From NCBI RefSeq assembly GCF_000009985.1, contig NC_007626.1:3238833-3262832 (forward strand): DNA of 24,000 nucleotides. The letters are read 5' to 3'. Both the position numbers and the translations under genes were made by a program. The first letter of the stretch is position 1; every line of letters begins with the position of its first letter. Below, one piece after another: positions 3,616 through 24,000 of this stretch. The notes under the pieces are model-generated. The model was not told the origin of the DNA. It ran no database searches and saw only the letters and a program-made list of their open reading frames with translations. Origin of the DNA: Paramagnetospirillum magneticum AMB-1 (lineage in GTDB: Bacteria > Pseudomonadota > Alphaproteobacteria > Rhodospirillales > Magnetospirillaceae).

Positions 3616-3648
3616 CTAATTAAATTCAAGGGTCGGGGTGGATCAGGC

Positions 3649-6635: not shown

Positions 6636-8089
6636 ACGCCGCCGAACTGGCCCCCTTCAAGGACCTGATCCGGACCCGCTGCGGCCTGCTGCTCGAAGGC
6701 GTCGGCGAGGAGCCCCTGGTCATCGCCATCCGCAAGCGCATGGCGGAAGCGGGCGTCGCCGGTCTGGCCGGATATCTCGCCAGATTGGTGGCCGCCGAGG
6801 ACGAATTCCAGGAATTCGTCACCCTGCTGACCATCAACGAGACCTATTTCTACCGCGAGCCCGAGCAACTGATGTTGCTGGTCGACCGTCTGATGCCGCG
6901 CCTGCTGGCCGACGAATCGGCCGGCCTGCCCATCACCATCCTGTCGGCCGGCTGCTCGTCGGGGGAAGAACCCTATTCCATCGCCATCGCCCTGTTGGAA
7001 AAGTTCGGTGAGGCGGCGGCGCGCATGGTGCGAATTCTGGGCGGCGACATCGACCATCACGCCCTGGCGCGGGCCCGGGCGGGACGCTACACCGCCTTTT
7101 CCTTCCGCAGCCTGGCGCCGGAACTGCGCCGACGCTACTTCCAGCCCGCCGGGCGGGACGCCATGGTGGTGGATGAGCGGGTCAAGGCCATGGTGAGCTT
7201 CCATCACCTCAACCTCCTGGCCGAGACCTTTCCGCCCGCCCTCGGCGCCTTGGACGTGGTGTTCTTCCGCAACGTCTCCATCTATTTCGACGTTTTGACC
7301 CGCAGAACCATTCAGCAGGCCTTCCGCCGCGTCATGACCCCCAGGGGGCATCTGGTGATCGGCTCGGCCGAGACCCTGGCCAATGACCTGGGCGTGTTCC
7401 GGCTGGTGGAGGATGAGGGCGCCTTCTATTTCGTCCAAGGCGACAGGGCCGGCCCGCCCGTCCCCATCCTCCCCGCTCCCCATCCGGCGCCCGTGCCGCC
7501 CCGCCCCGCCCCGGCTCCCGCCCGGCTGCATCTGGTTCCTCCGACGCCACCACCGGCCCCGCCGCCGGCGCCATCCCCCGGAATCACCGTGGAGGAGGCC
7601 CGCGCCCTGATCCGCGACAAGCGCTTCGACCGCATCGACCTGCTGCTGGGCGCCCGCAACCGTCAGCTTCCGGCCGACGCCACCCTGCTGGCGCTGGAGG
7701 GCTATGCCCGCCTGATGAGCCGCGACTTCGCCGCCGCCGCCGAGTTGGGCGCCAGGGCGCTGGCCGCCGACGAGTGGTCGGTGGACGGGCTGGTCCTGCT
7801 GGGGCTGGCCGCCAAATGGCGCGACGCGGCGCAGGACGCCATCGGCTGGTTCAAGAAGGCGGTCTATCTCCGCCCCGAATGCTGGCCCGCCCATTATTAC
7901 CTGGCCGAGCTGTACCGTTCGGCCGACAGCCCCGACCTGTCCCGGCGCAGCTATCGCGTGGCCTTGCAGCAATTGTCGGGGCAGCCCGAGCCCGATGGCG
8001 GGCTGGCCCTGCCGCTGGGGCTGCCCGTGGCCGAGGTCCTGTTCCTGTGCGAGCGCCAGGCCGGCACCGCCCGATCGGCGCAGAGGTAG
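6632..8089 (+). CDS. cheR: Chemotaxis methyltransferase CheR with a C-terminal TPR domain
   Basis: Begins MNAAELAPFKDLIRTRCGLLLEG. The SAM-binding region is ITILSAGCSSGEEPYSIAIAL, with FFRNVSIYFD downstream. A long Pro-rich linker leads to TPR-like repeats (LLALEGYARLM..., WFKKAVYLRPECWPAHYYLAELY). The start is an ATGA overlap with the cheB stop (6632-6635). The upstream part of track ORF 5792-8089 overlaps cheB out of frame. Confidence 0.9.
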   Translation: MNAAELAPFKDLIRTRCGLLLEGVGEEPLVIAIRKRMAEAGVAGLAGYLARLVAAEDEFQEFVTLLTINETYFYREPEQLMLLVDRLMPRLLADESAGLPITILSAGCSSGEEPYSIAIALLEKFGEAAARMVRILGGDIDHHALARARAGRYTAFSFRSLAPELRRRYFQPAGRDAMVVDERVKAMVSFHHLNLLAETFPPALGALDVVFFRNVSIYFDVLTRRTIQQAFRRVMTPRGHLVIGSAETLANDLGVFRLVEDEGAFYFVQGDRAGPPVPILPAPHPAPVPPRPAPAPARLHLVPPTPPPAPPPAPSPGITVEEARALIRDKRFDRIDLLLGARNRQLPADATLLALEGYARLMSRDFAAAAELGARALAADEWSVDGLVLLGLAAKWRDAAQDAIGWFKKAVYLRPECWPAHYYLAELYRSADSPDLSRRSYRVALQQLSGQPEPDGGLALPLGLPVAEVLFLCERQAGTARSAQR

Positions 8090-8092
8090 CCC

Positions 8093-10195: not shown

Positions 10196-10222
10196 AATTG
10201 CCGGATAAAGGGCGGGCAAAGC

Positions 10223-10591
10223 ATGCGGATACTGGTGGTTGACGACGATGCCATGGCGGGCGAGATGACCGGCGCGGTCCTGGAGGATGCCGGGCATGAC
10301 GTGGTCCTGGTGGAAAACGGCATCGATGCCACCGAGGCCCTGTCGGAGCAGGGGCCTTTCGATCTGGTGGTGTCGGACATGAACATGCCGCTGGTCAGCG
10401 GCATCGACTTGTTTCGCAATCTGCGCGACCAGGGCGAGGACATTCCCTTCATCCTGCTGACCGGCGACGAGCCCGGCCCGCTTCTGGCCGAGGAGCCGCG
10501 GCTCGACGGCTGCCTGACCAAGGATTTCACCCTGGAAACCTCGCTGATGGACGCCATCTCCGCCGCCATGGCCAAGCAGGAACGGGGCTAG
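10223..10591 (+). CDS. Stand-alone CheY-like receiver protein
   Basis: A 122-aa ORF: MRILVVDDDAMAGEM..., phosphoacceptor context LVVSDMNMPLVSG, ILLTGDEP, and conserved Lys context GCLTKDF. Confidence 0.85.
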   Translation: MRILVVDDDAMAGEMTGAVLEDAGHDVVLVENGIDATEALSEQGPFDLVVSDMNMPLVSGIDLFRNLRDQGEDIPFILLTGDEPGPLLAEEPRLDGCLTKDFTLETSLMDAISAAMAKQERG

Positions 10592-10596
10592 ACGGC

Positions 10597-12285
10597 ATGG
10601 ACGCCCGCAAGCCGACGCTCCGCGAAAAGATCCAGAAGCTGCGCCAGACCTTTCTCGGCAAGGTGCCCGAGACCGTCCGGCAGGGACGCGACCTCGGGGC
10701 ACGCCTGATCCTGACCCCCAAGGAATCGGGCACCCTGGACGACCTGTACCGCGTCTTCCATTCCATCAAGGGAACCGCCGCCTCGTTCGGACTCGAGGAA
10801 ATCAGCGCCAAGGGCGGCGCCGGCGAGGAAGTGCTTCTCGCGTTCCGCGCCCTGGACGAGGACGCCCGGGCGCGGGCCGTGTCCGGCTCGGTGGCCGAGA
10901 TGAACGCCCTTCTGGCCCAGGTCGTGGAACTGGCGGCCGCGGCGCTGGACAGCGAGAACCGGCTGTCCGCCCTGGCGCCCTCCTTCGACCTTGGCCTGGA
11001 GAGCGGCGACGATGGGGCGCCGCGCAAGCGCGTCTATATGTGCGACGACGACGAACTGGCCGCCGAGACCCTGATCATCCAGCTGAAATGCTTCGGCTAT
11101 GCCGTGGTCAACTTCGTCTCGCCCGATGCCCTGCGGGCGGCGGTGCTGTCCAATCCCCCCGACGCGGTCATCATGGACATCATGTTCCCCGGCGGCAGCC
11201 ATACGGGCACCGAGACCGTGGCCAGCCTGCGGCGCGAGATGCCGAACCCGCCGCCGGTGATCTTCATTTCCGGCCGCCGCGATTTCGATGCCCGTCTGCG
11301 GGCGGTGATGGCCGGCGGCCAGGCCTATTTCGCCAAGCCGGTGCGCGCCATCGAATTGGTGGACACCCTGGACACCATGACGTCGCGGCGCGAACCCGAG
11401 CCCTACCGCATCCTGGTGGTGGACGACGAGCCGGAAGTGGCCGAGTACCACAGCCTGATCCTGGAAGAAGCGGGCATGATCACCAGCCTGCTGCACGAAC
11501 CGGCCGGCATTCTCGACGCCCTGGCGGCGTTCCGCCCCGATCTGGTGCTGATGGACATGTACATGCCCCAGTGCACGGGGCGCGACCTGTCCCGGCTGAT
11601 CCGCCAGATTCCCGATTTCATCAGCCTGCCCATCGTCTTCCTGTCCAGCGAGACCAACAAGGTGACGCAGGTTTCGGCCATGCGGGTGGGCGCCGAGGCC
11701 TTCCTCACCAAGCCCATCCAGCCCGAGGACCTGATCAGCGCCGTGGCCATCCGCGCCGAGCGGATGCGCACCCTGCGCTCGCTGATGGTCCGCGATGGAC
11801 TGACCGGTTTGTTCAACCACACCTTCATCGTCCAGTATCTCGACACCGCCCTGGCGGCGGCCCGGCGCGAGAACGGCAAGCTCTGCGTGGCGATGATCGA
11901 CGTGGACCTGTTCAAGTCGGTCAACGACACCTATGGCCACCCCACCGGGGATCAGGTCCTGGTGGCCCTGGCGCGATTGCTGCAACAGCGGCTGCGCACC
12001 AACGACCTGATCGGGCGCTATGGCGGCGAGGAATTCGTCGTCGTCATGCAAAATGTCAGCCTGAAGGAAGGAATGACCGTCATGAACGGCCTGCGCGAGG
12101 ACTTCGCGCGCCTGAAGTTCCAAAGCGGCGACCAGTTCTTCTCCTGCACCTTCAGCGGCGGTATCTCGCGCTTTCCCGAGATCGCCGGCGACCGGCTGAT
12201 CGAGGCCGCCGACAAGGCCCTCTACGAGGCCAAGCAGGCCGGGCGCAACCGCATCGAGCTGGCGTCGCTGGAGCCACTTCCATGA
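10597..12285 (+). CDS. HPt-REC-REC-GGDEF diguanylate cyclase (PleD/WspR-like output with its own HPt)
   Basis: The N-terminal HPt reads LYRVFHSIKGTAASFGLEE. REC1 reads RVYMCDDDELA...AVIMDIMFPGG...IFISGR...YFAKP. REC2 reads RILVVDDEPEVA...LVLMDMYMPQCTG...VFLSSE...FLTKP. The GGDEF domain reads RDGLTGLFNH...DVDLFKSVNDTYGHPTGD...RTNDLIGRYGGEEF. It therefore has an intact GGEEF A-site and an RxxD I-site (RTND) five residues upstream. Confidence 0.9.
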   Translation: MDARKPTLREKIQKLRQTFLGKVPETVRQGRDLGARLILTPKESGTLDDLYRVFHSIKGTAASFGLEEISAKGGAGEEVLLAFRALDEDARARAVSGSVAEMNALLAQVVELAAAALDSENRLSALAPSFDLGLESGDDGAPRKRVYMCDDDELAAETLIIQLKCFGYAVVNFVSPDALRAAVLSNPPDAVIMDIMFPGGSHTGTETVASLRREMPNPPPVIFISGRRDFDARLRAVMAGGQAYFAKPVRAIELVDTLDTMTSRREPEPYRILVVDDEPEVAEYHSLILEEAGMITSLLHEPAGILDALAAFRPDLVLMDMYMPQCTGRDLSRLIRQIPDFISLPIVFLSSETNKVTQVSAMRVGAEAFLTKPIQPEDLISAVAIRAERMRTLRSLMVRDGLTGLFNHTFIVQYLDTALAAARRENGKLCVAMIDVDLFKSVNDTYGHPTGDQVLVALARLLQQRLRTNDLIGRYGGEEFVVVMQNVSLKEGMTVMNGLREDFARLKFQSGDQFFSCTFSGGISRFPEIAGDRLIEAADKALYEAKQAGRNRIELASLEPLP

Positions 12286-13280: not shown

Positions 13281-13304
13281 CAATGGGTTAAAATGCTGAA
13301 GGGT

Positions 13305-13354
13305 TCGGGAAGCCGGGCTTCCCGATTGGGGGATCGGGGGCAAAAGCCCCCGAT
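13305..13354 (+). promoter_or_regulatory. Two adjacent palindromes or hairpins upstream of pqiA (5'-UTR structure or operator pair)
   Basis: TCGGGAAGCC-G-GGCTTCCCGA (13305-13325) and ATCGGGGGC-AAAA-GCCCCCGAT (13333-13354). Each is followed by TTGG(G/A)GG. A -10-like TAAAAT lies at 13289-13294. Confidence 0.3.
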
Positions 13355-13400
13355 TGGAGGCGTTGCCGGTGACGTCCGGCCGCGATATGGTCGAGCGGTC

Positions 13401-13997
13401 ATGAACCATCTTTGCGCCTGCCCCCATTGCGACGCCCTGCACCGACGGCCAGCGCTGCGGCGCGGCGAAAAGGCCCTGTGTGTCCGCTGCGGCTCGGTGC
13501 TGGTCCGGCGCCACCGGCTGGCTCCCGACCATATCCTGGCGCTGGTGGTGGCGGCGGTGATGGTGTTCGCCATCGCCAACGCCTTTCCCATCGTCGATCT
13601 GCGCATCCAGGGCCTGCGCGGCGGCACCACCTTGTCCGGCGCCGTCGCCGCCCTGTGGTCGGAGGGGCGCCAGCCCATGGCCATGCTGGTCTGCGCCACC
13701 ACCCAGGTGTTCCCGCTGCTCGACCTCGGCTGCATGCTGGCGCTGCTGCTGACGGCATCGCGCCCCGGCCGTCCCGCCTGGTTCGGACCCCTGCTCCGCT
13801 TCGTCCAGGAGATGCGCCCCTGGGGCATGGTCGAGGTCTTCATGCTGGGCGTGGTGGTGTCGCTGGTGAAGCTGTCGGGCATGGCCACCATTCTGCCCGG
13901 CAAGGCGCTTTTGGCCTTTGCCCTGCTGACCGTGCTGATGGCGGCGATCCTGTCGTTCCATCCCCACCAGCTTTGGAACGAGCCCGAGCATGAGTGA
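13401..13997 (+). CDS. pqiA: PqiA-family inner-membrane protein, first half-gene
   Basis: Begins MNHLCACPHCDALHRRPALRRGEKALCVRCGSVL (a CxxC...CxxC ribbon), followed by hydrophobic helices (ILALVVAAVMVFAIANAFPIV, MVEVFMLGVVVSLVKL). The start is set at ATG 13401. Track start 13293 would run through the hairpin region. Confidence 0.8.
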   Translation: MNHLCACPHCDALHRRPALRRGEKALCVRCGSVLVRRHRLAPDHILALVVAAVMVFAIANAFPIVDLRIQGLRGGTTLSGAVAALWSEGRQPMAMLVCATTQVFPLLDLGCMLALLLTASRPGRPAWFGPLLRFVQEMRPWGMVEVFMLGVVVSLVKLSGMATILPGKALLAFALLTVLMAAILSFHPHQLWNEPEHE

Positions 13998-14619
13998 CGA
14001 CGCCCCCATCTCGGCCGCCGAGGCGGGCCTGATGGCCTGCGGCCATTGCGGCCAGATCATGGAGCACCGGGACGGCCCCATCGCCTGCCCCCGCTGCGGC
14101 GGCAGCGTGCGTCCACGCAAGCCCGCCAGCCTGTCGCGCACCTGGGCTCTGCTGCTGACGGCGATCATCCTCTATGTTCCGGCCAACCTGCTGCCGATCA
14201 TGGAGACCTCGTCGCTTTTGGTCACCTCACGCGACACCATCATCGGCGGCGTGGTGTATTTCTGGCATTCCGGCTCGCCCGGGCTGGCGGCCCTGATCTT
14301 CAGCGTCAGCATCCTGGTGCCGGTGCTGAAGATGTGCATCCTGGCCATCCTGGCCCTGACCGTGCAGTTCGGCTGGCCGCTGGACCGCCGCCAGTGCATC
14401 ACCCTGTTCCACGTCATCGAGTTCGTCGGCCGCTGGTCCATGCTGGACGTGTTCGTGGTGGCGCTGATGGTGGGGCTGGTGCGCTTCAAGGGGCTGGCGG
14501 TGATCGAGGCCGGACCCGGAGCCATTGCCTTCGGCCTCGTGGTTGCGTTAACAATGCTGGCCACCCATTCCTTCGACCCCCGCCTGATCTGGGATTCCCC
14601 CCGTCGTGCCCTCGGCTGA
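13990..14619 (+). CDS. pqiA: PqiA-family inner-membrane protein, second half-gene
   Basis: CGHCGQIM...CPRCGG ribbon, then WALLLTAIILYVPANLLPIMETS, SILVPVLKMCILAILALTV and RWSMLDVFVVALMVGLV. The start has an 8-nt overlap (ATGAGTGA) with the first half-gene. Confidence 0.85.
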   Translation: MSDDAPISAAEAGLMACGHCGQIMEHRDGPIACPRCGGSVRPRKPASLSRTWALLLTAIILYVPANLLPIMETSSLLVTSRDTIIGGVVYFWHSGSPGLAALIFSVSILVPVLKMCILAILALTVQFGWPLDRRQCITLFHVIEFVGRWSMLDVFVVALMVGLVRFKGLAVIEAGPGAIAFGLVVALTMLATHSFDPRLIWDSPRRALG

Positions 14620-16213
14620 TTCGCCTTCCCCCCAGCGCCCGGCCGAGCCGAGGATCCTTCCTCCGCGCCGCTGGCTGCCCTCGGCCATCTGGATCATTCC
14701 CGCCCTGGCGGCGCTGTTCGCCCTGTCGCTGGTGATCCACGCGCTGAACCAGCGCGGCCCGGCGATTACCGTCTATTTCGCCAGCGCCCAGGGCATCGAG
14801 GCCGGCAAGACCAAGGTGAAGTTCAAGGATGTGGAGATCGGCGACGTCACCGAACTGCATCTGGCCCCCGACCGCACGCGCGTCCAGGTGCGCATCGAGC
14901 TGAAAAAGGAGGCCGAGGGCTTCGCCGTCGAGGACAGCCGCTTCTGGGTGGTGCGCCCCCGCATGGCGGGCAGCGGCGTATCGGGCCTCGAGACCCTGCT
15001 GTCGGGCAGCTATATCGGCGTGGACGGTGGACATTCCGACAAGAAAAGCACCGAGTTCACCGGGCTGGAAGTGCCGCCGGTGATCGCCTCGGACATGCCG
15101 GGTCGGCGCTTCGTGCTGGTGGCCCGCGACATCGGCTCGCTCGATGTCGGCTCGCCGGTCTTCTTCCGCCGCATCCCCGTGGGCCATATCGAGAGCTACG
15201 CCCTGCAGCCCGACGGCCACAGCCTGTTCCTCAGCGCCTTCGTCAAGGCCCCCTATGACCGCTTCGTCACCGACGGCACCCGCTTCTGGCACGCCAGCGG
15301 CGTCGATCTGCGGCTGGATGCGGGCGGGCTGAAGCTCAACACCCAGTCGCTGGCCGCCATGCTGCTGGGCGGCGTCGCCTTCGAATCGCCCGACGGCAAT
15401 ATCGAAGCCCCCGAGGCCGCCCCGGCCACCCGCTTCGCCCTGGCCGCCGATCACGATTCCGCCCTCAAGGCCCCCGATGGCGAGGCTTATCCCCTGGTGC
15501 TGCGCTTTCACCAGACGGTCCGGGGCCTGACCATCGGCGCCCCGGTGGATTTCCGCGGCGCCGAGTTGGGTCAGGTCCGCGCCATCACCATGGCCTATGA
15601 CCGGGAAACCGCCGACTTCACCCCGGTGGTGACGGTGGATGTCTATCCCGACCGCCTGGACGTGGTCGGCGCCGACCCCAAGCCGCTAACCGACGAACAG
15701 CGGCAACGGCGTCTGGTCGAGCTGGTACGGCGAGGGCTGCGCGCCCAGTTGCGCACCGGCAATCTGGTCACCGGCCAGCTCTACGTGGCGCTGGACTTCT
15801 TCCCCAACGCCCCGCCGGTCAAGCTGAATCCGGCCGCCGAGCCGCCCGAACTGCCCACCGTGCCCGGCGATTTCGAGGAGCTTTACAAGCAGGTCCAGGC
15901 GATCCTGCGCAAGCTGGACAAGGTGCCGCTCGACGCCATCGGCCAGAACCTGCATGCCACCATGAAGCATCTGGACGCCATGACGGCCCGCACCGACAAG
16001 GAGGTGCTGCCGGAACTGCGCGACAGCCTGAAGGAAATGCGCGCCAGCATGGAAAGCCTGACCGCCGCCATGGCCGGCGACGCGCCGCTGCAGCAGGACA
16101 CCCGCCAGGCACTCAAGGGCCTGACCGAGGCCACCCGCTCGCTGAAGCGGCTGACCGACAGCCTGGACCGCCAGCCTGAATCCCTGCTGCAGGGCCGAAA
16201 GGAACAGCAATGA
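14606..16213 (+). CDS. pqiB: PqiB-like MCE-domain intermembrane transport protein
   Basis: A 535-aa ORF with an N-terminal anchor (WLPSAIWIIPALAALFALSLVI). It has repeated MCE-like segments (GKTKVKFKDVEIGDVTEL..., SPVFFRRIPVGHIESY..., APVDFRGAELGQVRAI...). The C-terminal tail is helical. The start is GTG at 14606 and its exact position is uncertain. Confidence 0.88.
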   Translation: MPSADSPSPQRPAEPRILPPRRWLPSAIWIIPALAALFALSLVIHALNQRGPAITVYFASAQGIEAGKTKVKFKDVEIGDVTELHLAPDRTRVQVRIELKKEAEGFAVEDSRFWVVRPRMAGSGVSGLETLLSGSYIGVDGGHSDKKSTEFTGLEVPPVIASDMPGRRFVLVARDIGSLDVGSPVFFRRIPVGHIESYALQPDGHSLFLSAFVKAPYDRFVTDGTRFWHASGVDLRLDAGGLKLNTQSLAAMLLGGVAFESPDGNIEAPEAAPATRFALAADHDSALKAPDGEAYPLVLRFHQTVRGLTIGAPVDFRGAELGQVRAITMAYDRETADFTPVVTVDVYPDRLDVVGADPKPLTDEQRQRRLVELVRRGLRAQLRTGNLVTGQLYVALDFFPNAPPVKLNPAAEPPELPTVPGDFEELYKQVQAILRKLDKVPLDAIGQNLHATMKHLDAMTARTDKEVLPELRDSLKEMRASMESLTAAMAGDAPLQQDTRQALKGLTEATRSLKRLTDSLDRQPESLLQGRKEQQ

Positions 16214-16830
16214 TCCCCCCCTTGCCCCGTCTGGCCGCGTCCCTGCTGCTGGCCGCCACCCTGGCCGGCTGCGGCGCCTCGACGCCGCTGCGCTATCACG
16301 CCCTGTCCAGTGGCCCGACCGCGCCGCTGGCGTCGGGCAGCGCCGCCCTGCTGGTCGAGGTGCTGCCCATCGCTGTTCCCGAGCGGATCAACCGCGAGGA
16401 GCTGGTCCTGAGCGGCCCCGGCGGCCAGCTGGAAGTGCGCGCCGGCGACCGCTGGGCGGCTCCCCTGGCCGACGAAATGCGCCAGCTGGTGGACGAGTCC
16501 CTGTGGCGCCATCTGCGCGCCGCCGACATCTATGTGGCGCCGCTGGCCATCACCGGCAGCGGACTGCCGCAGTACCGCCTGGCCCTGCGGCTGGAACGGC
16601 TGGAAGCCACCCCCGGCCGTCAGGCGGTGGCCGAGGCCAGTTGGACCGTGCGCCGCCTGCCCCAGGGCCAGCCCGCCATCTGCCGCACCGGCGCCACCGA
16701 GCCGCTGCCCGACGCCTCGACCGAGGCCGCCGTGGCCGGATTGGCCCGAGCCTCGGCCCGCCTCGCCGAGGCGGTGGCCGCCAGCCTGGGGCGGCTGCAC
16801 GCCGGGACGGCCAATCCCTGCGACGGCTAG
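16210..16830 (+). CDS. pqiC: PqiC/YmbA-like lipoprotein
   Basis: Lipobox LLLAATLAGC near the N-terminus. The start is an ATGA overlap with the pqiB stop. Size and position match the third gene of pqiABC. Confidence 0.78.
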   Translation: MIPPLPRLAASLLLAATLAGCGASTPLRYHALSSGPTAPLASGSAALLVEVLPIAVPERINREELVLSGPGGQLEVRAGDRWAAPLADEMRQLVDESLWRHLRAADIYVAPLAITGSGLPQYRLALRLERLEATPGRQAVAEASWTVRRLPQGQPAICRTGATEPLPDASTEAAVAGLARASARLAEAVAASLGRLHAGTANPCDG

Positions 16831-17043: not shown

Positions 17044-17306
17044 GCGGAGCCATCTCTGCCCCAATCGCGAGAACCTGATGAGGCGGCCGGCACGTCCCTG
17101 ACCGGCCGGGCATCGCCTTGACTGCCCATGGTTGCAGCCACCGAGCACGCCGTGGCGCCATGCCGGAGATCCTCCAAATTTATGTTGCGATCGATTCGCA
17201 TTCTCATTACTGATGGCCGGACTTTCCGCGCCCGAAGCGACACCGCGACGGGCCGCCAGCCCGGAGCCTCATCCTGTCGGTCCTCTCTTTTCCCCGCCAC
17301 GCCCTG

Positions 17307-18254
17307 GTGCTGTGCCTCGTCCTGCTGGCCCTCGGCATGCCGTTGGGCGCGCCGTGGGAACCGGCGCGGGCTGCGGAGGCCGATGAATTCGGGCTGGAGG
17401 AAAAGGACCCGGAGCTGCCGGGCAAGATTAAGGCCTGGAATGCCGACTGCCTGTCCTGTCACAGCGAGGCCGGGCTGAAAAATCCTCCGCGCCAGGGCAT
17501 GGACATGGCGCTGCTGGCCAAGCTGCTGGTCGACCATCCGCGCTTCGAGGCCTCCGATCACGGCAAGATGGCCTGCAAGGATTGTCATTCCGAGGCCTAT
17601 GTCCCCTATCCCCACCTGCCCAACGCCAAGGCGCAGATCAAGGGCTGCGAGCCCTGCCACCAGCAGCCGGCCAAAGCCATCGTCCCGGAGTTCAAGGCCA
17701 GCAAGCACTTCAAGGACCACACGGCCAAGTTCACCTGCCTGTCCTGTCACGATTCCCACACCATGCGCAAGGCGGCCAAGCTGCCCTCCGCCCAGGCTGC
17801 GTCACGCCAGGACAATCATCAATGTCTGGCCTGCCACGACGACGACCGGCGTTATCTCGCCCTGATGAAGCCCGAGACCCGGCGGCCCGAGATGAGCAAG
17901 GTGCATGACTGGCTGCCCGAACTGGCCCTGCATCTCGATCACGTTCGCTGTGTCGATTGCCACAGCCCGGTGGCCGACATGGCCCTGTCCCACGAGGTGC
18001 AGGGCAAGGACAAGGCGGTTCGCCAGTGCGAATCCTGCCACGCCGAGCAAGGCGAACTGGGCCGCCGCCTGTACAAGCCCATGCTCATCGACCAGCCCGG
18101 GGAAACGGATGGCTTCGCCAATGCCGCCCTGCTGCGCGAGGTCTATGTGCTCGGCGCCAACCGTAACCGATGGATCGACTGGGGCGGCTTGGGAGCGTTG
18201 TCGCTGACCGCCCTGGTGGTGCTGGTCCGCTTTGTGCGCCGGAGGAAGACATGA
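17307..18254 (+). CDS. Heptahaem c-type cytochrome, periplasmic with a C-terminal membrane anchor
   Basis: Seven CxxCH motifs: CLSCH, CKDCH, CEPCH, CLSCH, CLACH, CVDCH, CESCH. The N-terminus is signal-like (LCLVLLALGMPLGAPWEPARA/AE). The C-terminal TM helix ends in a basic tail (WGGLGALSLTALVVLVRFVRRRKT). The start is GTG at 17307 and is uncertain. Confidence 0.85.
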   Translation: MLCLVLLALGMPLGAPWEPARAAEADEFGLEEKDPELPGKIKAWNADCLSCHSEAGLKNPPRQGMDMALLAKLLVDHPRFEASDHGKMACKDCHSEAYVPYPHLPNAKAQIKGCEPCHQQPAKAIVPEFKASKHFKDHTAKFTCLSCHDSHTMRKAAKLPSAQAASRQDNHQCLACHDDDRRYLALMKPETRRPEMSKVHDWLPELALHLDHVRCVDCHSPVADMALSHEVQGKDKAVRQCESCHAEQGELGRRLYKPMLIDQPGETDGFANAALLREVYVLGANRNRWIDWGGLGALSLTALVVLVRFVRRRKT

Positions 18255-20200
18255 CAGCAACGCCCGCCCAGGTCTCTCCCCCTCTCCACCGCCAGCGACT
18301 GGTGGTGGTGGGCAACGGCATGGCCGCGCTGCGCACCGTCGAGGAGATTCTGGCGCTGGCGCCCGATCGCTTCCACATCACGGTGCTGGGGGCCGAGCCC
18401 CACGGCAATTACAACCGCATCCTCCTGTCGTCGGTGCTGGCCGGCGACAAGCAGGTGGGCGACATCGTCACCCATCCCCCCGGCTGGTATGCCGAGCGCG
18501 GCATCGCCTTGCGCACCGGCGATCCGGTGGTGTCCATCGACCCGGAGCACCGCCGGGTGAGCACCGCCTCGGGCCACGTGGTCGCGTGGGACCGCCTGCT
18601 GCTGGCCACCGGCGCCCGGCCGCTGATGCCCGCCCTGCCCGGGGCCGGACTGGAGGGCGTCTACGGCTTTCGCACCATCGGCGACGTCCAGGCCATGCTG
18701 GCGTCGGCGGGACGCCATCGCCGCGCCGTGGTGGTGGGCGGTGGCGTGCTGGGCCTGGAGGCCGCCTGGGGCCTGCGCCGCCAGGGCATGGCGGTGACGG
18801 TCATCCACCTCACTCCCTGGCTGATGGAACGCCAGTTGGACGAGGTGGCGGCCGCAATGCTGCGCCACGACCTGGAACGCCACGGCATCGCCTGCCTGAC
18901 CTCGGCCCAGGCGGCCCGGCTGGAGGGCCGCGAAAGGGTCGAGGCCGTCACCCTGTCCGACGGCCGCACCATCGCCGCCGATCTGGTGGTGATGGCGGTG
19001 GGCATCCGCCCCAACACCGACCTGGCGCGTCAGGCCGGGCTGGAGGTGGGGCGCGGCATCACGGTGGATGCCCGGATGCGCAGTTCGGCCCCGGATATCT
19101 TCGCGGTGGGAGAATGCGTCGAGCATGACGGCCAGTGCTATGGTCTGGTCATGCCGCTGTGGGACATGGCCCGGGTCTGCGCCCACCATCTGACGGGGGG
19201 CGAGGGCGAGCGTCTTTTCACGCCCCCCTCGCTGTCGACCCGCCTCAAGATTCCCGGCATCGCCCTGTTCTCGGCCGGCGAGCCCGCCGCCGCCAACGAT
19301 GACGACCGCGAACTGATCCACCACGATCCCGGCCAGAGCATCTACAAGAAGCTGGTGCTGCGCCGGGGACGGCTGGTGGGCGCCGTGCTCTATGGCGACG
19401 TGGAGGACAGCGCCCGCGTCTGGCAATGGCTGTGCGACGGCGACGACGTCGGCCATCTCTGCGCCGGCAATTTGTGCCTGGGGCGAATTTCCGGCCAGTG
19501 CGCCGCCGCCGATCCCCTGGAGAACCTGCCCGACGACGCCGTGGTCTGCCATTGCAACGGCGTGACCAAGGGCGCCATCGTCGCCGCCATCGCCGAGCAC
19601 GGCCTGACCAGCCTGGAGCAGGTCACCGCCCGGACCAGGGCGTGCAGCGGCTGCGGCCAGTGCGCCGCGCTCACCGCCCGCATCCTGGCCCGCACCCTGG
19701 GCGAGGACGGCGCCGAGGCCCTGGCCGCCGAGACGCGGCGAAGCGAGATCCGCGCCGGGGCCTTCCGCCTCTGGCACCGCGCCAATGCCGTGCTGATGAG
19801 CGTGCTGGCCGTCACCGGGCTGTTCCTGCATTTCGCCGGGACCCCGGCGGCGCTGCTGCGTCTGGAATGGGCGTTCGGCCTGCACAAATGGTCGGGCCTG
19901 ACCCTGGTCGCCGCCTATGGCGCCTTCCTGGGCCTGACCGCGCTGTTCCGCCGCCGCTGGCGGGCCAATGCCGAAGGAATGGTGATGTTCGTCCTGATGC
20001 CGGCCCTGGTGGTCACCGGTCTGGCCTTCCTATGGCCGGTCCTGCTGCCCCAGGAGCCGCAGAAGGTCAACGGCATCGCCTGGGTTGCGGTGGTCCACAC
20101 CGTACTGGCCATCGCCCTCTTGATGTACCTGATTCACCACCTGGGCACCGCCCCGGTCCAGTGGTGGCGAAAGCGAAAGGCGCGGGCCTTCGGGGGGTGA
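18251..20200 (+). CDS. Fusion protein: NirB-like FAD/NAD(P)H oxidoreductase, BFD-like [2Fe-2S] domain and four-TM dihaem cytochrome b domain
   Basis: ATG 18251 follows GGAGGAAG and forms an ATGA overlap with the cytochrome stop. The FAD motif is LVVVGNGMAALRT. The second dinucleotide motif is AVVVGGGVLGLEAAWGL. AVGECVEH is also present. The BFD-type cysteines read VVCHCNGVTKG...RACSGCGQCAA. Four hydrophobic helices follow, with His in TM1 (LWHR, FLHF), in TM2 (LHKW), and as a pair 13-14 residues apart in TM4 (VVHTVLAIALLMYLIHH). The C-terminus is basic (WWRKRKARAFGG). Confidence 0.85.
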   Translation: MTATPAQVSPPLHRQRLVVVGNGMAALRTVEEILALAPDRFHITVLGAEPHGNYNRILLSSVLAGDKQVGDIVTHPPGWYAERGIALRTGDPVVSIDPEHRRVSTASGHVVAWDRLLLATGARPLMPALPGAGLEGVYGFRTIGDVQAMLASAGRHRRAVVVGGGVLGLEAAWGLRRQGMAVTVIHLTPWLMERQLDEVAAAMLRHDLERHGIACLTSAQAARLEGRERVEAVTLSDGRTIAADLVVMAVGIRPNTDLARQAGLEVGRGITVDARMRSSAPDIFAVGECVEHDGQCYGLVMPLWDMARVCAHHLTGGEGERLFTPPSLSTRLKIPGIALFSAGEPAAANDDDRELIHHDPGQSIYKKLVLRRGRLVGAVLYGDVEDSARVWQWLCDGDDVGHLCAGNLCLGRISGQCAAADPLENLPDDAVVCHCNGVTKGAIVAAIAEHGLTSLEQVTARTRACSGCGQCAALTARILARTLGEDGAEALAAETRRSEIRAGAFRLWHRANAVLMSVLAVTGLFLHFAGTPAALLRLEWAFGLHKWSGLTLVAAYGAFLGLTALFRRRWRANAEGMVMFVLMPALVVTGLAFLWPVLLPQEPQKVNGIAWVAVVHTVLAIALLMYLIHHLGTAPVQWWRKRKARAFGG

Positions 20201-20232
20201 CCGGAGGCCGGCTTGGGGATTTGGAGCGAATT

Positions 20233-21175
20233 ATGATGAGAATGCGACTTATTAGCCTTACTTCCGCCGTCGCGGCCCTGCTGTCCGCCGCCCCCGCCCT
20301 GGCCGTGGATTGGGCCAAGGTGCCGGGCCGCGAGGTGGTCTTGCTGTATCCCGGCCAGACCTCGTGGGAGTGGAACCTGACCGAAGCCGACCACAGCGCC
20401 GCCGCCAAGTTCAAGGCGGGGCAGAACTGCATCGAGTGCCACAAGAACCAGGAAAAGACCCAGGGCGCCCTGATGGTATCGGGCAAGAAGGCCGAGCCCA
20501 ACGCCATCGCCTCGTTCCCCGGCCATGTGGTGGTCAACACCCGCTTCGCCTATGACGACCAGCGGCTTTACGCCCGCTTCGAGTTCAAGGAGCCGGCCTC
20601 GCCCAACACCAAAATGGACGCCGAGTTCGCCACCAAGCTGGCCTTCATCTTCAACGATGCCGCGGTCCCCGAGGGCGTGCGGGCCGGCTGCTGGGCCAGC
20701 TGCCACGAGGACAACGCCTCCATGCCCGCGGCGGGCGGGTCCGAGCGCACCAAGTACCTGATGAAAAGCCGGGCCAAGCTGAGCCGCCAGGGCGGCGGCG
20801 ACCTGCTGAAAATCCCCCGAGGACCTGGCCAGGCTGACCGAGACCGGCTACATCCAGGAATGGTGGCAGGCCAAGCTGAATCCCGGCGCCAAGCCGGTGG
20901 CCGGCGGCGGCATCATCTTCGACCGCCGCCAGGAACTGAAGCCCGCCCAGGTCAGCGCCGAAGCGACCCAGGCCGCTGACGGCGGCTGGGTGGTGGTGCT
21001 GAGCCGCCCGCTGGCCGCCCCGGCCCCCTATCGCGCCCTGGCGCCGGGAAAGACCTATTCCTTCGGCATCAGCGTCCATGTGGGCCACAGCGCCAAGCGC
21101 TTCCACCACACGTCTTATGAGTACACCCTGGCGCTGGGGTCCGGCGCCGCCGATTTCATGGCGGTGAAGCAATGA
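20233..21175 (+). pseudogene. EB_dh-like (ethylbenzene dehydrogenase gamma / cytochrome c552 N-domain-like) periplasmic haem protein, interrupted by a 1-nt frameshift
   Basis: GGAG lies 7 nt before ATG 20233 and the signal peptide is MMRMRLISLTSAVAALLSAAPALA/VD. There are two CxxCH motifs (CIECH, CWASCH). Frame 1 is sensible up to ...GGGDLLKIP at about 20817 and then becomes an Arg/Pro/Gly-rich tail. Frame 2 opens at 20810 and continues sensibly (EDLARLTETGYIQEWWQAKLNPGAKPVAGGGIIFDRRQEL...HHTSYEYTLALG) to TGA 21175. That stop is ATGA-coupled to the next gene. The shift maps to the A4/C5 homopolymers at 20809-20818. Confidence 0.65.
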
Positions 21176-22128
21176 GGCTGGCCCGTCTCCTCCCCTGGGC
21201 GGCCCTGGCGGCGATCCTGCTGCTGGCCGCCTGGATTTCGCCGGCTTGGCCCCAGATCGCCTCGGCCCCCGAATGGTCGGCCGACGGCGAGGCCACCTGC
21301 ATCAAGTGCCACGGCGAAACCAGGGACCGCACCATCCTGTTCACCCCCCACGGGGTGAAGGGGGACAAGCACACTCCCATGGCGCAGCACGCCTGCGAGG
21401 GCTGCCATGGCGCCAGCCCCCGCCACAACGACGCCCGCCCGCCCAAGGGCGAAAAGCGCCCGCCGACCGACGTGGTGTTCAAGGGCGAGTTCCTGTCGCC
21501 GGTGGAAAAGCGCAACCAGGTCTGCTCCAACTGCCATAACGGCGGCGAGCACATCAACTGGAAGGGCAGCACCCACCAGCGCAACGACGTGGCCTGCACC
21601 GATTGCCATGCCTCGCATGTGCGCTCGGACCCGGTCATGGCCAAGAAGACCGAGCCCCAGGTCTGCTTCACCTGCCACAACCAGGAGCGGGCGGAAAGCC
21701 TGCAGGCCTCGCACCATCCCATCCGCGAGGGCAAGGTCACCTGCTCGGACTGCCACAACACCCACGGCTCGGGCGGGCCGAAGCTGCTCAAGGAGTTCAC
21801 CCTCAACGAGACCTGCTACGCCTGCCACCCGGAACAGCGCGGGCCGTTCCTGTGGGAGCACCAGCCGGTGCGCGAGGATTGCAGCACCTGCCACCAATCC
21901 CACGGCTCGCCCCAATCCAGCCTGCTGAAGCAGCGCCAGCCGTTCATCTGCATGACCTGCCACCAGACCAGCCGCGCCAATCACGACGCCATGGTCTCGG
22001 GCGGCCAGCAATTGCCCGGCGCCGGCGGTGTTGGCACCTACAACATGCTGCTGGCCCGGGGCTGCTCCAATTGCCACTCCAAGGTCCACGGCTCCAATGC
22101 CCCCTCGGGAGGCATGCTGACCCGCTGA
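21172..22128 (+). CDS. mtoA: Periplasmic decahaem c-type cytochrome, MtrA/DmsE/MtoA/PioA family
   Basis: A 318-aa ORF with signal peptide MRLARLLPWAALAAILLLAAWISPAWP. Exactly ten CxxCH motifs: CIKCH, CEGCH, CSNCH, CTDCH, CFTCH, CSDCH, CYACH, CSTCH, CMTCH, CSNCH. Size and haem count match MtrA/MtoA, and the gene is followed by an MtrB/PioB-type barrel gene. The symbol is by family resemblance only. Confidence 0.9.
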   Translation: MRLARLLPWAALAAILLLAAWISPAWPQIASAPEWSADGEATCIKCHGETRDRTILFTPHGVKGDKHTPMAQHACEGCHGASPRHNDARPPKGEKRPPTDVVFKGEFLSPVEKRNQVCSNCHNGGEHINWKGSTHQRNDVACTDCHASHVRSDPVMAKKTEPQVCFTCHNQERAESLQASHHPIREGKVTCSDCHNTHGSGGPKLLKEFTLNETCYACHPEQRGPFLWEHQPVREDCSTCHQSHGSPQSSLLKQRQPFICMTCHQTSRANHDAMVSGGQQLPGAGGVGTYNMLLARGCSNCHSKVHGSNAPSGGMLTR

Positions 22129-22133
22129 AGCAC

Positions 22134-22167
22134 AAGGCCCCGGTGGCGCGAGCCGGGGCCTTCTTTC
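22134..22167 (+). terminator. Terminator-like or attenuator hairpin between the decahaem cytochrome and porin genes
   Basis: AAGGCCCCGG (22134-22143) pairs perfectly with CCGGGGCCTT (22153-22162) around a 9-nt loop, followed by CTTTC. It lies 6 nt after the mtoA stop in an 88-nt spacer. Confidence 0.35.
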
Positions 22168-22216
22168 AGCCCATCAATTGCGATTACGTCTCATTTGCAC
22201 TTTTCCGGGGGACGGA

Positions 22217-24000
22217 ATGATGTTTGTGAAGATCCTGCGCAGCGGCGCCCTGGCGGCTTTCTGCACCCTGACGGCAACCGCCCAGGCCGACGAGTTCGAC
22301 ATCGACGAGGCCCCCGCCGTGTCGCCCGCCAAGAAGCCGGTGCCCATGAACGAGGCCGGCGTCCATGTGGGGGCGCAACGGGGGGGCTCGGCGGCCTTCA
22401 ACCGTTTTGGCGGCACGCCAGAAAGCGGCGTCTTCGGCGGCGGCTGGTTCCACCTGCAGCAGCGCGACGCCGCCGAGGGCGGCGGCACCTTCTACCTCAA
22501 GGCCGATGGCGAGAACGTCGATTTCCGCTCCAACGCCCTGCCGCCCGACGCCGCCGCCGCCGTGCGAATGGGCCAGCAAGGGGTGTGGGACCTGCGCCTT
22601 CACTATGACGGCATTGTGTTTCGCCAGGCCGACAACTACCACACCCTGTTCAATGGCTCGGGGCAGTTGCTGAACGGCCTGACGCCGGCCTCCATCAACG
22701 CCACCTCGACCAATGCCGCCGGGGTGGCCCGCGTCAACCAGTACCTGTCGGCGGTGGAGGTGGGCACGAGGCGCGACCGGGCGGGCGGCGCCTTTTCCTA
22801 TACCGGGCTGGAGGAATGGAAGTTCACCACCCGGCTGGACCACGAACACAAGCACGGCACCAAGGCCAATTCGGTGATGTTCCTGTCCAACAGCAATTTC
22901 GCCTCCATCCTGGAGCCGGTGAACTACGACACCGACCGCTTCGCCCTGAATGCCGCCTACACCACCCGGCCGCTGCAGGCACAGATCAGCTACGTCTTTT
23001 CCAACTTCACCAACAATATCGCCGAATACGTCACCCGCGATCCTTTCATCGGGGCCACCCATGCCGGCTATGACGGCACCCGCTATTCGTTGCCGCCCAG
23101 CAATTCCGAGCATCGCCTCAAGGCGCAGTTCGGGGTGAACCTCACCGACACCACCCGCATCGCCACCAATCTCAGCTACGGCCTGCAGCTTCAGAACGAA
23201 GCCTTCGCCGCGCGGCATTACGAGCAGGCCCCCCGCCTGGGCGCCAGCACCTATGACGGCATGATCCAGACGCTCTACGGCAACGTGGTCATGACGGCGC
23301 GCCCCCTGCCCGACTGGACCCTGCGCGCCGCCTATACCGCCGACGACCGCGACAACATGAGCGCGTCCTATTGGCAAAAGCCTCCCTACCGCGCCGACGG
23401 CACCGCCGTCTTCAACGGCAACACCGGCATTCACACCAACCCCGCCTATTCGTTCTTCAACCAGAAGGGCGAGGCGGAAGTGGGCTATCGCCTGACCCGC
23501 TCCACCAAGCTCACCGCCGACTACGCCTATCGCAACAGCCTGCGCAGCGATTCGGTCACCAACCGCAACGAGGAAAGCACCTATGGCGGCCGGGTCCAGT
23601 CCACCCTGGCCGAGGGGCTGACCGGCACCCTGGGCTATGCCCATTCCAACCGGCAGGCCACGGTCTTCCTGGGCAATCGCGGCTGGAACGAGATGGGGCG
23701 CACGGTCACCGCCGAGTCCGGGCTGAAGATCTTTTCCTACGCCGCCCGCGACCGCGACGAGGCCAAGGCCAATCTCAACACGGTGTTCGGCGACGGCGTG
23801 GTAGTGGGGACCACGGCCCGCTGGATCGAGGATCGCTTTCCCGAGACCCTCTACGGCGTCACCAACAACCACATCCTGTCCCTGGGCGGCGACGCCTCGT
23901 TCCCCGCCGGGCCGGGCGTGACCGCCCACCTGTTCTACACCTACATGGAGAACTTCACCGGCATGAAGATGAATGCCAGCGCCACCGGCACGCTGTGGAC
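22217..24000 (+). CDS. mtoB: MtrB/MtoB/PioB-family outer-membrane beta-barrel (porin partner of the decahaem cytochrome), 3'-truncated by the window edge
   Basis: My own translation from ATG 22217 stays open to the window end. The signal peptide is MMFVKILRSGALAAFCTLTATAQA/DEF. Amphipathic strand-like repeats rich in Y/R/N/D/T follow (LRLHYDGIVFRQ, AQISYVFSNFTNN, TLRAAYTADDRDN, KLTADYAYRNSLRSD, GTLGYAHSNRQ). It sits immediately downstream of the decahaem gene. It is absent from the ORF track because no stop lies in the window. Confidence 0.8.
   Translation, partial: MMFVKILRSGALAAFCTLTATAQADEFDIDEAPAVSPAKKPVPMNEAGVHVGAQRGGSAAFNRFGGTPESGVFGGGWFHLQQRDAAEGGGTFYLKADGENVDFRSNALPPDAAAAVRMGQQGVWDLRLHYDGIVFRQADNYHTLFNGSGQLLNGLTPASINATSTNAAGVARVNQYLSAVEVGTRRDRAGGAFSYTGLEEWKFTTRLDHEHKHGTKANSVMFLSNSNFASILEPVNYDTDRFALNAAYTTRPLQAQISYVFSNFTNNIAEYVTRDPFIGATHAGYDGTRYSLPPSNSEHRLKAQFGVNLTDTTRIATNLSYGLQLQNEAFAARHYEQAPRLGASTYDGMIQTLYGNVVMTARPLPDWTLRAAYTADDRDNMSASYWQKPPYRADGTAVFNGNTGIHTNPAYSFFNQKGEAEVGYRLTRSTKLTADYAYRNSLRSDSVTNRNEESTYGGRVQSTLAEGLTGTLGYAHSNRQATVFLGNRGWNEMGRTVTAESGLKIFSYAARDRDEAKANLNTVFGDGVVVGTTARWIEDRFPETLYGVTNNHILSLGGDASFPAGPGVTAHLFYTYMENFTGMKMNASATGTLW

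Follow-up and report, generated by a model that had tools for sequence, protein, structure and literature searches.

The characterised porin-cytochrome pathways all join metabolism via the quinone pool, and they have been discussed as routes of respiration or lithotrophy. MtrCAB-CymA from Shewanella, MtoAB-MtoD-CymA/ImoA from Sideroxydans lithotrophicus ES-1 and PioABC from Rhodopseudomonas palustris TIE-1 have in common adjacent genes for an MtrA-family decahaem cytochrome and an MtrB-family barrel, and MtrC is absent from the Mto and Pio systems. The same gene pair, also without mtrC, is found in the operon amb3013-3018 of Paramagnetospirillum magneticum AMB-1, where it follows three other co-directional genes in the stretch investigated here (positions 3,238,833 to 3,262,832 of NC_007626.1, forward strand; 24,000 nucleotides, referred to as the window; Table 1). 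In contrast to the Mtr, Mto and Pio systems, neither a NapC/NirT-type quinol dehydrogenase nor an MtoD-type monohaem cytochrome is encoded in the window or in the 3.7 kb beyond mtoB, and the inner-membrane end is instead made up of an anchored heptahaem cytochrome and a fusion of flavoprotein, [2Fe-2S] and cytochrome b domains. The locus is further set apart by a predicted Fur regulation, outward electron flow and assimilatory purpose: in our preferred reading, which we hold with about even confidence, the five genes would form a wire that is induced by iron starvation and leads from NAD(P)H to Fe(III) outside the cell, in the service of iron acquisition.

Several parts of this arrangement are already known. 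AMB-1 has been reported to reduce iron and to carry mtrAB without mtrC and with no other candidate reductase (PMC7005843). In a study of a Telmatospirillum relative that was enriched on goethite as a goethite reducer, M. magneticum, Skermanella and Insolitispirillum are listed as MtrAB carriers, and a 'cytochrome c-552-MtrA-MtrB' operon is described in which the same EB_dh-like dihaem gene, known there as 'cytochrome c-552 (2 hemes)', precedes mtrAB; the study holds no description of heptahaem or cytochrome b genes (PMC6933298). Proteins of the CbcL/MtoC/MtrH type combine a multihaem c domain with a HydC/FdnI-type dihaem cytochrome b, and their genes adjoin mtoAB or mtrAB in Dechloromonas, Gallionella and Rhodoferax, while the quinol/quinone activity of CbcL has itself only been proposed (PMC6295460). 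The NirT-NirB pair of nirSTBM, whose members are regarded as partners, is known in a fused form, NirTB (PMC13086519). As this dihaem NirB shares its name with the large subunit of assimilatory NAD(P)H-nitrite reductase, we write NirB(c-552) for the former and NirB for the latter. Our literature search returned no paper on amb3013-amb3018 and no usable expression data for AMB-1 under iron limitation. It also returned no description of a split CbcL-like unit whose cytochrome b is fused to a flavoprotein derived from NirB, of the conserved five-gene module or its Fur-type operator, of the series of swapped inner-membrane modules, or of the Fur-versus-FNR dichotomy presented below.

Gene content and the outer-membrane half

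The five genes are tightly packed, with ATGA overlaps at 18251-18254 and 21172-21175, and their products largely agree with those proposed in a first-pass annotation, which had been made from the letters of the window alone. The coordinates of the open reading frames (ORFs) bear out the five co-directional genes with two overlaps, a transmembrane (TM) helix at residues 289-311 behind seven CxxCH motifs supports the C-terminally anchored heptahaem cytochrome, matches to the Pyr_redox_2, Fer2_BFD and Ni_hydr_CYTB profiles confirm the fusion protein, and both members of the MtrA/MtoA/PioA and MtrB/MtoB/PioB pair were recovered by their NCBIfam models. The third protein had been called EB_dh-like with two CxxCH motifs; the family stood (PF09459), but one of the motifs is CxxxCH, and the cluster holds 18 CxxCH motifs plus one CxxxCH in place of the 19 CxxCH counted earlier. 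The pattern of haem motifs in genes 1-4 (7/0/1+1/10) is the same in six other loci, and the five-gene arrangement is far beyond chance since all related loci examined share these genes and their order. The statement that CymA and an MtoD-type small cytochrome are missing held as well. PF03264, the tetrahaem quinol dehydrogenase model, gave no match in the cluster, and the window contains no NapC/NirT gene or further CxxCH-bearing ORF outside it. Just beyond the window, where a canonical cymA or mtoD might have lain, the sole CxxCH-bearing ORF in the 3.7 kb past mtoB encodes a Fer2 ferredoxin; a PioC-type HiPIP was not specifically searched for.

The decahaem cytochrome (hereafter MtoA) scored 315 bits against TIGR03508, for which the cut-off is 192, and matched the solved MtrA structure 6r2q_A with an E-value of 8.5e-67. 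The barrel gene, mtoB, begins 89 nt downstream of it and is cut by the window end. MtoB reached 611 bits against TIGR03509 (cut-off 240) and 4e-127 against PF11854, and the complete 730-residue protein, taken from a re-sequenced contig (L008), aligned over residues 114-721 with the solved MtrB, 6r2q_B, at 4.5e-18. By these profile and structure matches, MtoA and MtoB are assigned as a bona fide MtrAB/MtoAB/PioAB pair.

Table 1. Coordinates of the conduit genes, their domains and putative control elements in the AMB-1 window, and of comparison features on other contigs (contig:position).
Feature	Position	Strand	Basis and remarks
Putative Fur-type operator GTTGCGATCGATTCGCATTCT	17184..17204	+	palindrome TGCGA-N5-TCGCA; 103 nt upstream of GTG start
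Heptahaem c-type cytochrome (amb3013, WP_043744716)	17307..18254	+	315 aa; 7 CxxCH; Pfam c7/c3 families
Flavoprotein/[2Fe-2S]/cytochrome b fusion	18251..20200	+	649 aa; Pfam and NCBIfam
NAD(P)H/FAD flavoprotein domain of fusion	aa 16-294, nt 18296-19132	+	Pyr_redox_2, 1.5e-61
Rubredoxin_C-type domain of fusion	aa 329-390	+	Pfam
BFD-type [2Fe-2S] domain of fusion	aa 431-480, nt 19541-19690	+	Fer2_BFD, 2.8e-15
Four-helix dihaem cytochrome b domain of fusion	aa 505-643, nt 19763-20179	+	Ni_hydr_CYTB, 8.4e-15
EB_dh/DOMON-fold dihaem c-type cytochrome, predicted NirB(c-552) type	20233..21175	+	Sec signal; frameshifted in assembly
MtrA/MtoA/PioA-family decahaem cytochrome (amb3017, WP_011385393)	21172..22128	+	318 aa; TIGR03508; 10 CxxCH
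MtrB/MtoB/PioB outer-membrane barrel	22217..24000 (window end cuts gene)	+	PF11854, TIGR03509
mtoA-mtoB spacer features	22134..22197	+	hairpin and second Fur-like site; AMB-1 lineage only
FNR-type boxes (TTGAT-N4-ATCAA)	L021:6157-6194 (two, perfect); L022:6324; L023:6178; L024:5885, 5983		upstream of gammaproteobacterial NapC/NirT-EB_dh-mtoAB
Fused NirTB genes	L025:6203-7906; L026:6230-7951; L027:6230-7951		directly after nirS; same CxxCH and CxxxCH

The flavoprotein-cytochrome b fusion and its heptahaem partner

Residues 1-490 of the fusion correspond to the electron-input half of NirB (positions 1-475 of the 794 in TIGR02374), with the FAD/NAD(P)H and BFD-type [2Fe-2S] domains in common. This half is 55-58% identical to NirB from Rhodospirillales and carries the same nucleotide-site signature, while the score of the protein against TIGR02374 (478 bits) falls below the cut-off of 578. 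Where NirB has its sirohaem/[4Fe-4S] catalytic half, the fusion instead has a membrane cytochrome b: PF01077 and PF03460 gave no match in the protein and PF01292 stands in their place. The fusion is not a nitrite reductase. GNGMA (residues 21-25), GGG (163-165) and the [2Fe-2S] cysteines C433, C435, C468 and C471 are invariant. Only about 20 clusters of homologues with a retained cytochrome b (53-82% identity) turned up among 5.8 billion proteins; everything more distant is ordinary NirB.

The cytochrome b domains score 55-61 bits against PF01292 (gathering threshold 30.1) and have four TM helices. Five histidines, H509, H527, H545, H616 and H630, are invariant, also in an unfused cytochrome b from Telmatospirillum; H509, H545, H616 and H630, on TM1, TM2 and (the last two) TM4, are the candidate haem ligands, with H527 as the invariant fifth. 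In Fdn-N, the two b haems are ligated by histidines of TM1, TM2 and two of TM4, and both this four-histidine pattern and the N-in topology of FdnI and HyaC match the domain found here, as TM hydropathy and charge distribution fit an N-in/C-in arrangement. On this basis the H509/H630 haem is predicted to lie near the cytoplasm and the H545/H616 haem near the periplasm. Neither the cytochrome b domain nor its profile found a match among solved-structure sequences, so that the likeness to FdnI and HyaC rests on Pfam membership and the histidine pattern; a homologue search with the domain alone was likewise empty. In the AlphaFold2 model of the fusion, one continuous helix ties the [2Fe-2S] domain to TM1. 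The Foldseek neighbours of this model are all NADH:iron-sulfur-protein reductases (NADH:ferredoxin, rubredoxin), a result dominated by the flavoprotein domain and uninformative about the cytochrome b.

The product of the first gene has a periplasmic domain followed by the C-terminal TM helix and a cytoplasmic RRRK tail, and both the helix and the basic tail are conserved in its homologues. Among 1.84 billion representatives, a full HMMER search recovered 416 relatives in two length classes, of approximately 300-340 and 480-680 residues; about 38 of the top 150 homologues belong to the longer class, and all ten long homologues tested carry a C-terminal PF01292 domain. The closest solved relative is 28pb_A, labelled 'Cytochrome c'. 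Because the heptahaem protein is homologous to the c domain of such multihaem-c/cytochrome-b fusions, we assign it, together with the cytochrome b of the neighbouring gene, as a split form of the known CbcL/MtoC/MtrH-type inner-membrane module. The periplasmic multihaem c and PF01292 cytochrome b parts are shared with CbcL/MtoC/MtrH, the likeness being one of architecture and of c/b fusion homologues. In contrast to these proteins, the c and b domains are here encoded by two genes and not in one polypeptide, the cytochrome b is fused N-terminally to an NAD(P)H/FAD/[2Fe-2S] module and has a shortened TM2-TM3 loop, and the heptahaem protein has seven haems where CbcL has nine. FdnH/FdnI and HyaA/HyaC are likewise built from a four-helix PF01292 cytochrome b and a periplasmic subunit that a single C-terminal helix keeps at its side. 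Those enzymes, however, pass electrons inward to quinone with conservation of energy, whereas here a cytoplasmic NAD(P)H dehydrogenase is fused to the cytochrome b and the predicted flow is outward.

Two side observations concern the heptahaem family. In the region 17307-17390, the original annotation (BAE51817) begins the AMB-1 protein 10 codons later and hence without a signal peptide, and the start given here is tentative. A fused heptahaem-cytochrome b homologue (P0173), 40% identical to the AMB-1 heptahaem protein, is encoded just upstream of cydAB and ybgT (cytochrome bd oxidase; region L154:5662-10708) with no adjoining mtoAB, and the fused module therefore serves other quinone-linked contexts.

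The kinship with CbcL raises the main alternative, that the unit is quinol-linked, with the cytochrome b oxidising quinol and feeding the heptahaem protein, and with the flavoprotein either reducing quinone at the same cytoplasmic-side site or tuning that site; it would then be a built-in NDH-2-like feeder with no direct injection into haem b. Such a function would be in keeping with the PF01292 relatives FdnI and HyaC, which are typically quinone-reactive, with the unfused pair of heptahaem protein and cytochrome b in Telmatospirillum, and with the fused homologue next to cytochrome bd quinol oxidase genes. The multihaem-c/cytochrome-b fusions with which the heptahaem protein groups have, moreover, been called quinol oxidases (PMC6295460). 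Three features of the fusion nonetheless make this alternative rather unlikely in our view: its cytoplasmic TM2-TM3 loop is shorter by about 45 residues than that of the unfused cytochrome b, the continuous helix of the AlphaFold2 model joins the [2Fe-2S] domain directly to TM1, and the input half of NirB normally passes its electrons to a bound metal centre and not to quinone. Under our preferred reading, the electrons would bypass the quinone pool.

Conservation, module exchange and the dihaem cytochrome

The five genes were found in the same order, within unrelated flanks, on all six metagenome contigs reached through fusion homologues. A scan with the EB_dh-like protein over one genome per species added seven genome loci with the complete module, in two Magnetospirillum metagenome-assembled genomes (MAGs), a Skermanella isolate and a Skermanella MAG, Insolitispirillum peregrinum, a 'Proteobacteria' MAG and a MAG labelled Sulfotelmatobacter; the carriers, among them Skermanella stibiiresistens, are mostly Rhodospirillales. 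The first three genes thus stand next to mtoAB in every locus found, six contigs and seven genome loci; a lack of this linkage in related genomes, which the first-pass annotation had named as counter-evidence, was not observed. On the contig labelled 'Candidatus Sulfotelmatobacter' (Acidobacteriota; L014, L001/L002), the whole module is 60-67% identical to that of AMB-1 at 63% GC, with a sigma-54 activator gene directly upstream; this may reflect horizontal transfer or mis-binning, and we do not take it as a spread of the module to Acidobacteria, since by GC content and protein identity the contig looks alphaproteobacterial.

A smaller core of the EB_dh-like, MtoA and MtoB genes, without the heptahaem and fusion genes, was found in a Caulobacteraceae MAG, other Alphaproteobacteria and four Gammaproteobacteria. 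In four of these sister clusters (L016, L019, L021 and L024), a NapC/NirT tetrahaem gene (PF03264, 1e-49 to 1e-78) immediately precedes the core and fills the slot of the heptahaem and fusion genes, and NrfC/NrfD-like genes lie near the core in two loci. The Telmatospirillum MAG of Gagen et al. (PMC6933298; L018:3713-7936) has a third arrangement, with a heptahaem homologue, a stand-alone PF01292 cytochrome b (87.6 bits) unfused and without flavoprotein, an inserted LysR gene and then the core. One periplasmic and outer-membrane core is thus combined with exchangeable modules at the inner membrane, of which the AMB-1 type is one, and the EB_dh-like protein belongs to the conserved core, as the most widely kept partner of this MtoAB clade.

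These results also put the claim of an undescribed upstream half into perspective. The first-pass annotation had described CymA as the link to the inner membrane in characterised systems, thereby overlooking the CbcL/MtoC/MtrH family (PMC6295460), and had seen three proteins in the place of the usual ones. An exchange at the inner membrane is indeed evident from the NapC/NirT genes of the sister clusters, but the EB_dh-like protein co-occurs with NapC/NirT and is not an alternative peculiar to this cluster. What is new in the upstream half, within the reach of our literature search, is the NirB-derived flavoprotein fused to a cytochrome b, whereas the heptahaem/cytochrome b unit is a split CbcL-like one and the EB_dh-like protein was known. 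The finding is, in other words, more ordinary in two of the three supposedly unknown proteins and more interesting in the fusion and its regulation.

The EB_dh-like gene is split in the assembly into ORFs at 20233-20979 and 20897-21175, which match different parts of PF09459 with 54.4 and 52.8 bits (threshold 33.3). The cause is one extra A at 20809-20812, AAAA here versus AAA in two independent short-read assemblies (SRR19829219/20; contigs L008/L009) that are 99.977% identical over 8830 bp and contain an intact gene for 312 residues. The intact frame across the A-run encodes ...LLKSPED..., and homologues align straight across it, while NCBI annotates a truncated product of 245 residues. The extra A is probably an error of the 2005 reference assembly or a variant of a laboratory strain, and not gene decay.

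Both haem motifs of the protein, CIECH (CxxCH) and CWASCH (CxxxCH), are invariant. The fold matches the haem subunits EbdC (2ivf_C, Foldseek 2.5e-8) and NxrC (7b04_C, 2.6e-7), which bind non-covalent haem b with Met/Lys ligation as subunits of type II Mo enzymes, where the present protein has covalent-haem motifs; Lys201 of EbdC aligns beside the invariant H290 and not with a lysine, and no molybdoenzyme genes were found near the cluster, in the window or the downstream contig. In three genomes, a NapC/NirT tetrahaem domain and an EB_dh-like dihaem domain with the same haem motifs are fused via an Ala/Glu/Pro-rich linker in a gene following nirS, and in one of these (L027) a cupredoxin gene, nirE, nirC and nirF come next. 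Through this fused NirTB and the NapC/NirT neighbours in the sister clusters, the EB_dh-like protein is typed as a dihaem cytochrome of the NirB(c-552) family. In nirSTBM the dihaem gene directly follows the NapC/NirT gene, a pair that the CymA-type sister clusters keep ahead of mtoAB; in AMB-1, by comparison, the upstream partner is not NirT, and the downstream acceptor would be MtoA and not cd1 nitrite reductase. Homologues of 450-475 residues are also encoded in Bacillota MAGs (L029:5521-6867, L031:6755-8179, L032:71-1492); they share 28-30% identity with the query, keep both CxxCH and CxxxCH and possess an N-terminal TM helix, and the family therefore reaches monoderm bacteria.

Since the NirTB fusion works as a Rosetta stone, the protein carries a Sec signal but no lipobox, and its conservation (66-87%) is level with that of MtoA, we propose that it is a periplasmic relay fed by the inner-membrane module. 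Following Gagen et al. 2019, it could instead be an extracellular terminal reductase that has taken the gene position and role of MtrC. The gene order, in which dihaem-mtrA-mtrB mirrors mtrC-mtrA-mtrB, would suit this placement, as would the lack of any MtrC/OmcA homologue encoded in the cluster, the type II secretion genes upstream of one related locus, and a localisation predictor that put the Telmatospirillum homologue outside the cell (PMC6933298). We consider it distinctly improbable, however, for the same domain is joined by a linker to the inner-membrane NapC/NirT protein, next to periplasmic nirS, in the three NirTB genomes, matching the view of NirT and NirB as partners (PMC13086519). 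The missing lipobox likewise speaks against a surface location, as does the degree of conservation, which is lowest in surface cytochromes but in the dihaem protein equals that of MtoA and, in five of six loci, surpasses that of the barrel (MtoB, 43-84%).

Regulation and the direction of electron flow

All eleven five-gene loci that have upstream DNA carry a related 21-mer, with the consensus ATTGCAAATGATTCTCATT, approximately 100 nt ahead of the heptahaem gene. When a position weight matrix (PWM) built from nine sites was run over both strands of 465 kb, it also recovered the Skermanella and Insolitispirillum sites, which were outside its training set, and no further matches of at least 22 bits were found in the 465 kb. 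The 21-mer is similar both to the classical Fur box and to the alphaproteobacterial Fur-alpha/MRS type (PMC1698941). As the Fur-alpha consensus is published only as logos, the motif was assessed empirically by scanning the exact consensus 18-mer in a metagenome collection, followed by a Pfam scan of the 88 flanking ORFs of at least 150 residues, among which were Plug (14), receptor barrel (10), FeoA (3), IucA/IucC (2), FhuF (2) and Fur (2) domains. Because the 18-mer thus adjoins iron-uptake genes in unrelated contigs, the 21-mer is assigned as a putative Fur-type operator. The AMB-1 box overlaps a -35-like TTGCGA with TACTGA 17 nt on, and in all loci a TTGCRA half-site is followed by TAnnnn at the same distance; by inspection, the box would therefore overlap the -35 element and spacer of the promoter. 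A scan with the sigma-70 consensus returned no promoter.

The CymA-type clusters do not have a Fur-type box. FNR-like boxes were instead found in four of four gammaproteobacterial CymA-type loci and in none of the eleven five-gene loci, against a background of 0.026 per 400 nt, which suggests anaerobic induction of the gammaproteobacterial sister clusters. The Telmatospirillum locus (L018) is preceded, at a distance of about 250 nt, by TTTGCGAAATAGTATCATGATAAA, a sequence of moderate similarity to Fur boxes.

This dichotomy bears on whether the conduit might be a respiratory or redox-balancing sink that would relieve the cell of excess NAD(P)H during micro-oxic or fermentative growth, with Fe(III), Mn(IV) or humics outside as acceptors and with the Fur-like box as incidental or modulating. 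The Telmatospirillum relative did use goethite as an electron sink in fermentation (PMC6933298), FeGenie classes the AMB-1 mtrAB as probable iron reduction (PMC7005843), and the FNR boxes of the CymA-type clusters are typical of anaerobic respiration. With FNR-like boxes in none of the eleven five-gene loci and a Fur-type box in all of them, we regard the sink as unlikely; export of NAD(P)H electrons via two b haems would, in addition, conserve no energy and consume membrane potential, and would suit low-flux assimilation better.

In our preferred reading, by contrast with a sink, Fur would repress the operon when iron is ample and the cell would build the wire at iron limitation. The NirB-derived part would oxidise cytoplasmic NAD(P)H and pass single electrons via FAD to the BFD-type [2Fe-2S] cluster, from which the fused cytochrome b would move them across the inner membrane, from the cytoplasmic-side haem to the periplasmic-side one. 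The heptahaem cytochrome, its C-terminal helix predicted to dock beside the cytochrome b in the manner of FdnH/FdnI, would take the electrons at the periplasmic face, the dihaem cytochrome would relay them through the periplasm, and MtoA, threaded through MtoB, would hand them to Fe(III) outside the cell. Ferric iron in insoluble or chelated form would in this way be mobilised reductively and the released Fe(II) become available for uptake, making the whole an assimilatory ferric reductase across both membranes. The role in iron uptake appears likely because the operon is read as Fur-repressed when iron is plentiful.

The same combination of a cytoplasmic reductant, a flavin or nothing, two transmembrane b haems and Fe(III) on the outside is found in the eukaryotic FRE/NOX ferric reductases and the cytochrome b561-DOMON (CYBDOM) proteins, the latter of which add a DOMON-fold haem domain. 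The likeness to these families is functional, in that the logic and the (here predicted) control by iron starvation agree. They are not homologous to the AMB-1 system, which in contrast requires further cytochromes and a porin for the periplasm and outer membrane; PF01794, PF08022, PF03188, FAD_binding_8 and NAD_binding_6 gave no match in the Pfam scan of the cluster. We put forward, tentatively and with some doubt, the stronger proposal that the fusion works, independently of quinone, as a transmembrane NAD(P)H dehydrogenase within a Fur-controlled, two-membrane assimilatory ferric reductase, of NirB/CbcL-like origin and an independent bacterial counterpart of FRE/NOX and CYBDOM, which would make this the first conduit primarily for iron acquisition.

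An outward flow is proposed for three reasons: the NirB ancestry of the input module, as NirB and the structural neighbours of the fusion oxidise NAD(P)H; the thermodynamics, as transfer from Fe(II) to NAD(P)+ would be uphill and opposed by the membrane potential; and the Fur control. The reverse has to be considered, in which the locus would be a conduit of the Mto/Pio type for Fe(II) oxidation or electron uptake, with electrons from Fe(II), magnetite or a cathode entering via MtoAB and the fusion reducing quinone or NAD(P)+. MtrAB without MtrC is a hallmark of the MtoAB/PioAB oxidisers, multihaem conduits are reversible in principle (PMC6295460), and surveys place Magnetospirillum among the genera with mto/pio components (PMC10654088). 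This direction is nonetheless very improbable, given that electrons leaving Fe(II) at ~0 V would face a steep energetic climb to NAD(P)+ at -320 mV, with the membrane potential opposing their inward passage. A Fur-repressed promoter would, moreover, be active under iron scarcity, whereas an Fe(II) oxidiser would call for the reverse, and both the Telmatospirillum relative, through its enrichment as a reducer of goethite, and AMB-1 have been reported as iron reducers.

A number of points weigh against an NAD(P)H-fed wire for iron acquisition. All support for it is computational, and the AlphaFold2 model of the fusion is only moderate (pLDDT 77, pTM 0.55). The PF01292 family usually has a quinone site, and the unfused Telmatospirillum version must use one, so that quinone may take part. 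The AMB-1 Fur box is the weakest of all, with 27.4 bits against 28-37 elsewhere and four differences from the 18-mer. The heptahaem gene starts with GTG without a clear Shine-Dalgarno sequence, and its product has a short signal peptide lacking a basic n-region. The dihaem cytochrome gene is frameshifted in the reference assembly, and its product was predicted by Gagen et al. to be extracellular (PMC6933298). Finally, most of the Magnetospirillum species representatives in the genome scan lack the module, which is therefore not tied to magnetosome formation.

If true, an NAD(P)H-fed conduit under the control of iron starvation would extend the uses of porin-cytochrome systems to a third, reductive iron acquisition, and provide a new inner-membrane electron route. 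It would also explain the long-noted and mechanistically orphan iron reduction of AMB-1, an organism that is genetically tractable and has a very high iron demand. For annotation, the locus is a caution that mtrAB without mtrC alone shows neither Fe(II) oxidation nor dissimilatory reduction. The series of NirT-type, heptahaem plus cytochrome b, and heptahaem plus flavo-cytochrome b modules before the same core is a natural experiment in the re-plumbing of conduits, and a self-contained wire from NAD(P)H to an electrode would be of interest for engineering bioelectrochemical strains.

Within the cluster, the 88-nt spacer between mtoA and mtoB contains a GC-rich 10-bp hairpin, AAGGCCCCGG-N9-CCGGGGCCTT, at 22134-22162, followed by CTTTC, and a weaker second Fur-like site, ATTGCGATTACGTCTCATTTG, at 22177-22197 (19 bits); together these could constitute an attenuator plus an internal mtoB promoter.

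The upstream flank of the conduit (319-12285) holds dnaE2, for an error-prone polymerase, and then a complete Che/Wsp-like chemosensory cluster, which encodes a dCache_3 methyl-accepting chemotaxis protein (MCP), CheB and CheR, a hybrid of CheA, CheW and receiver domains, a stand-alone receiver and, as output protein, an Hpt-receiver-receiver-GGDEF response regulator; a functional tie to the conduit is not evident. Between this cluster and the conduit lies a Pqi-like envelope system of the PqiAB/MlaD type (13293-16830), in which PqiA is represented by two overlapping consecutive ORFs (13293-13997 and 13990-14619), followed by a PqiB-like protein with three MlaD domains and a lipoprotein (ABC_trans_aux). 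Downstream of the conduit are mnmA, a methyltransferase gene and isc-type genes.

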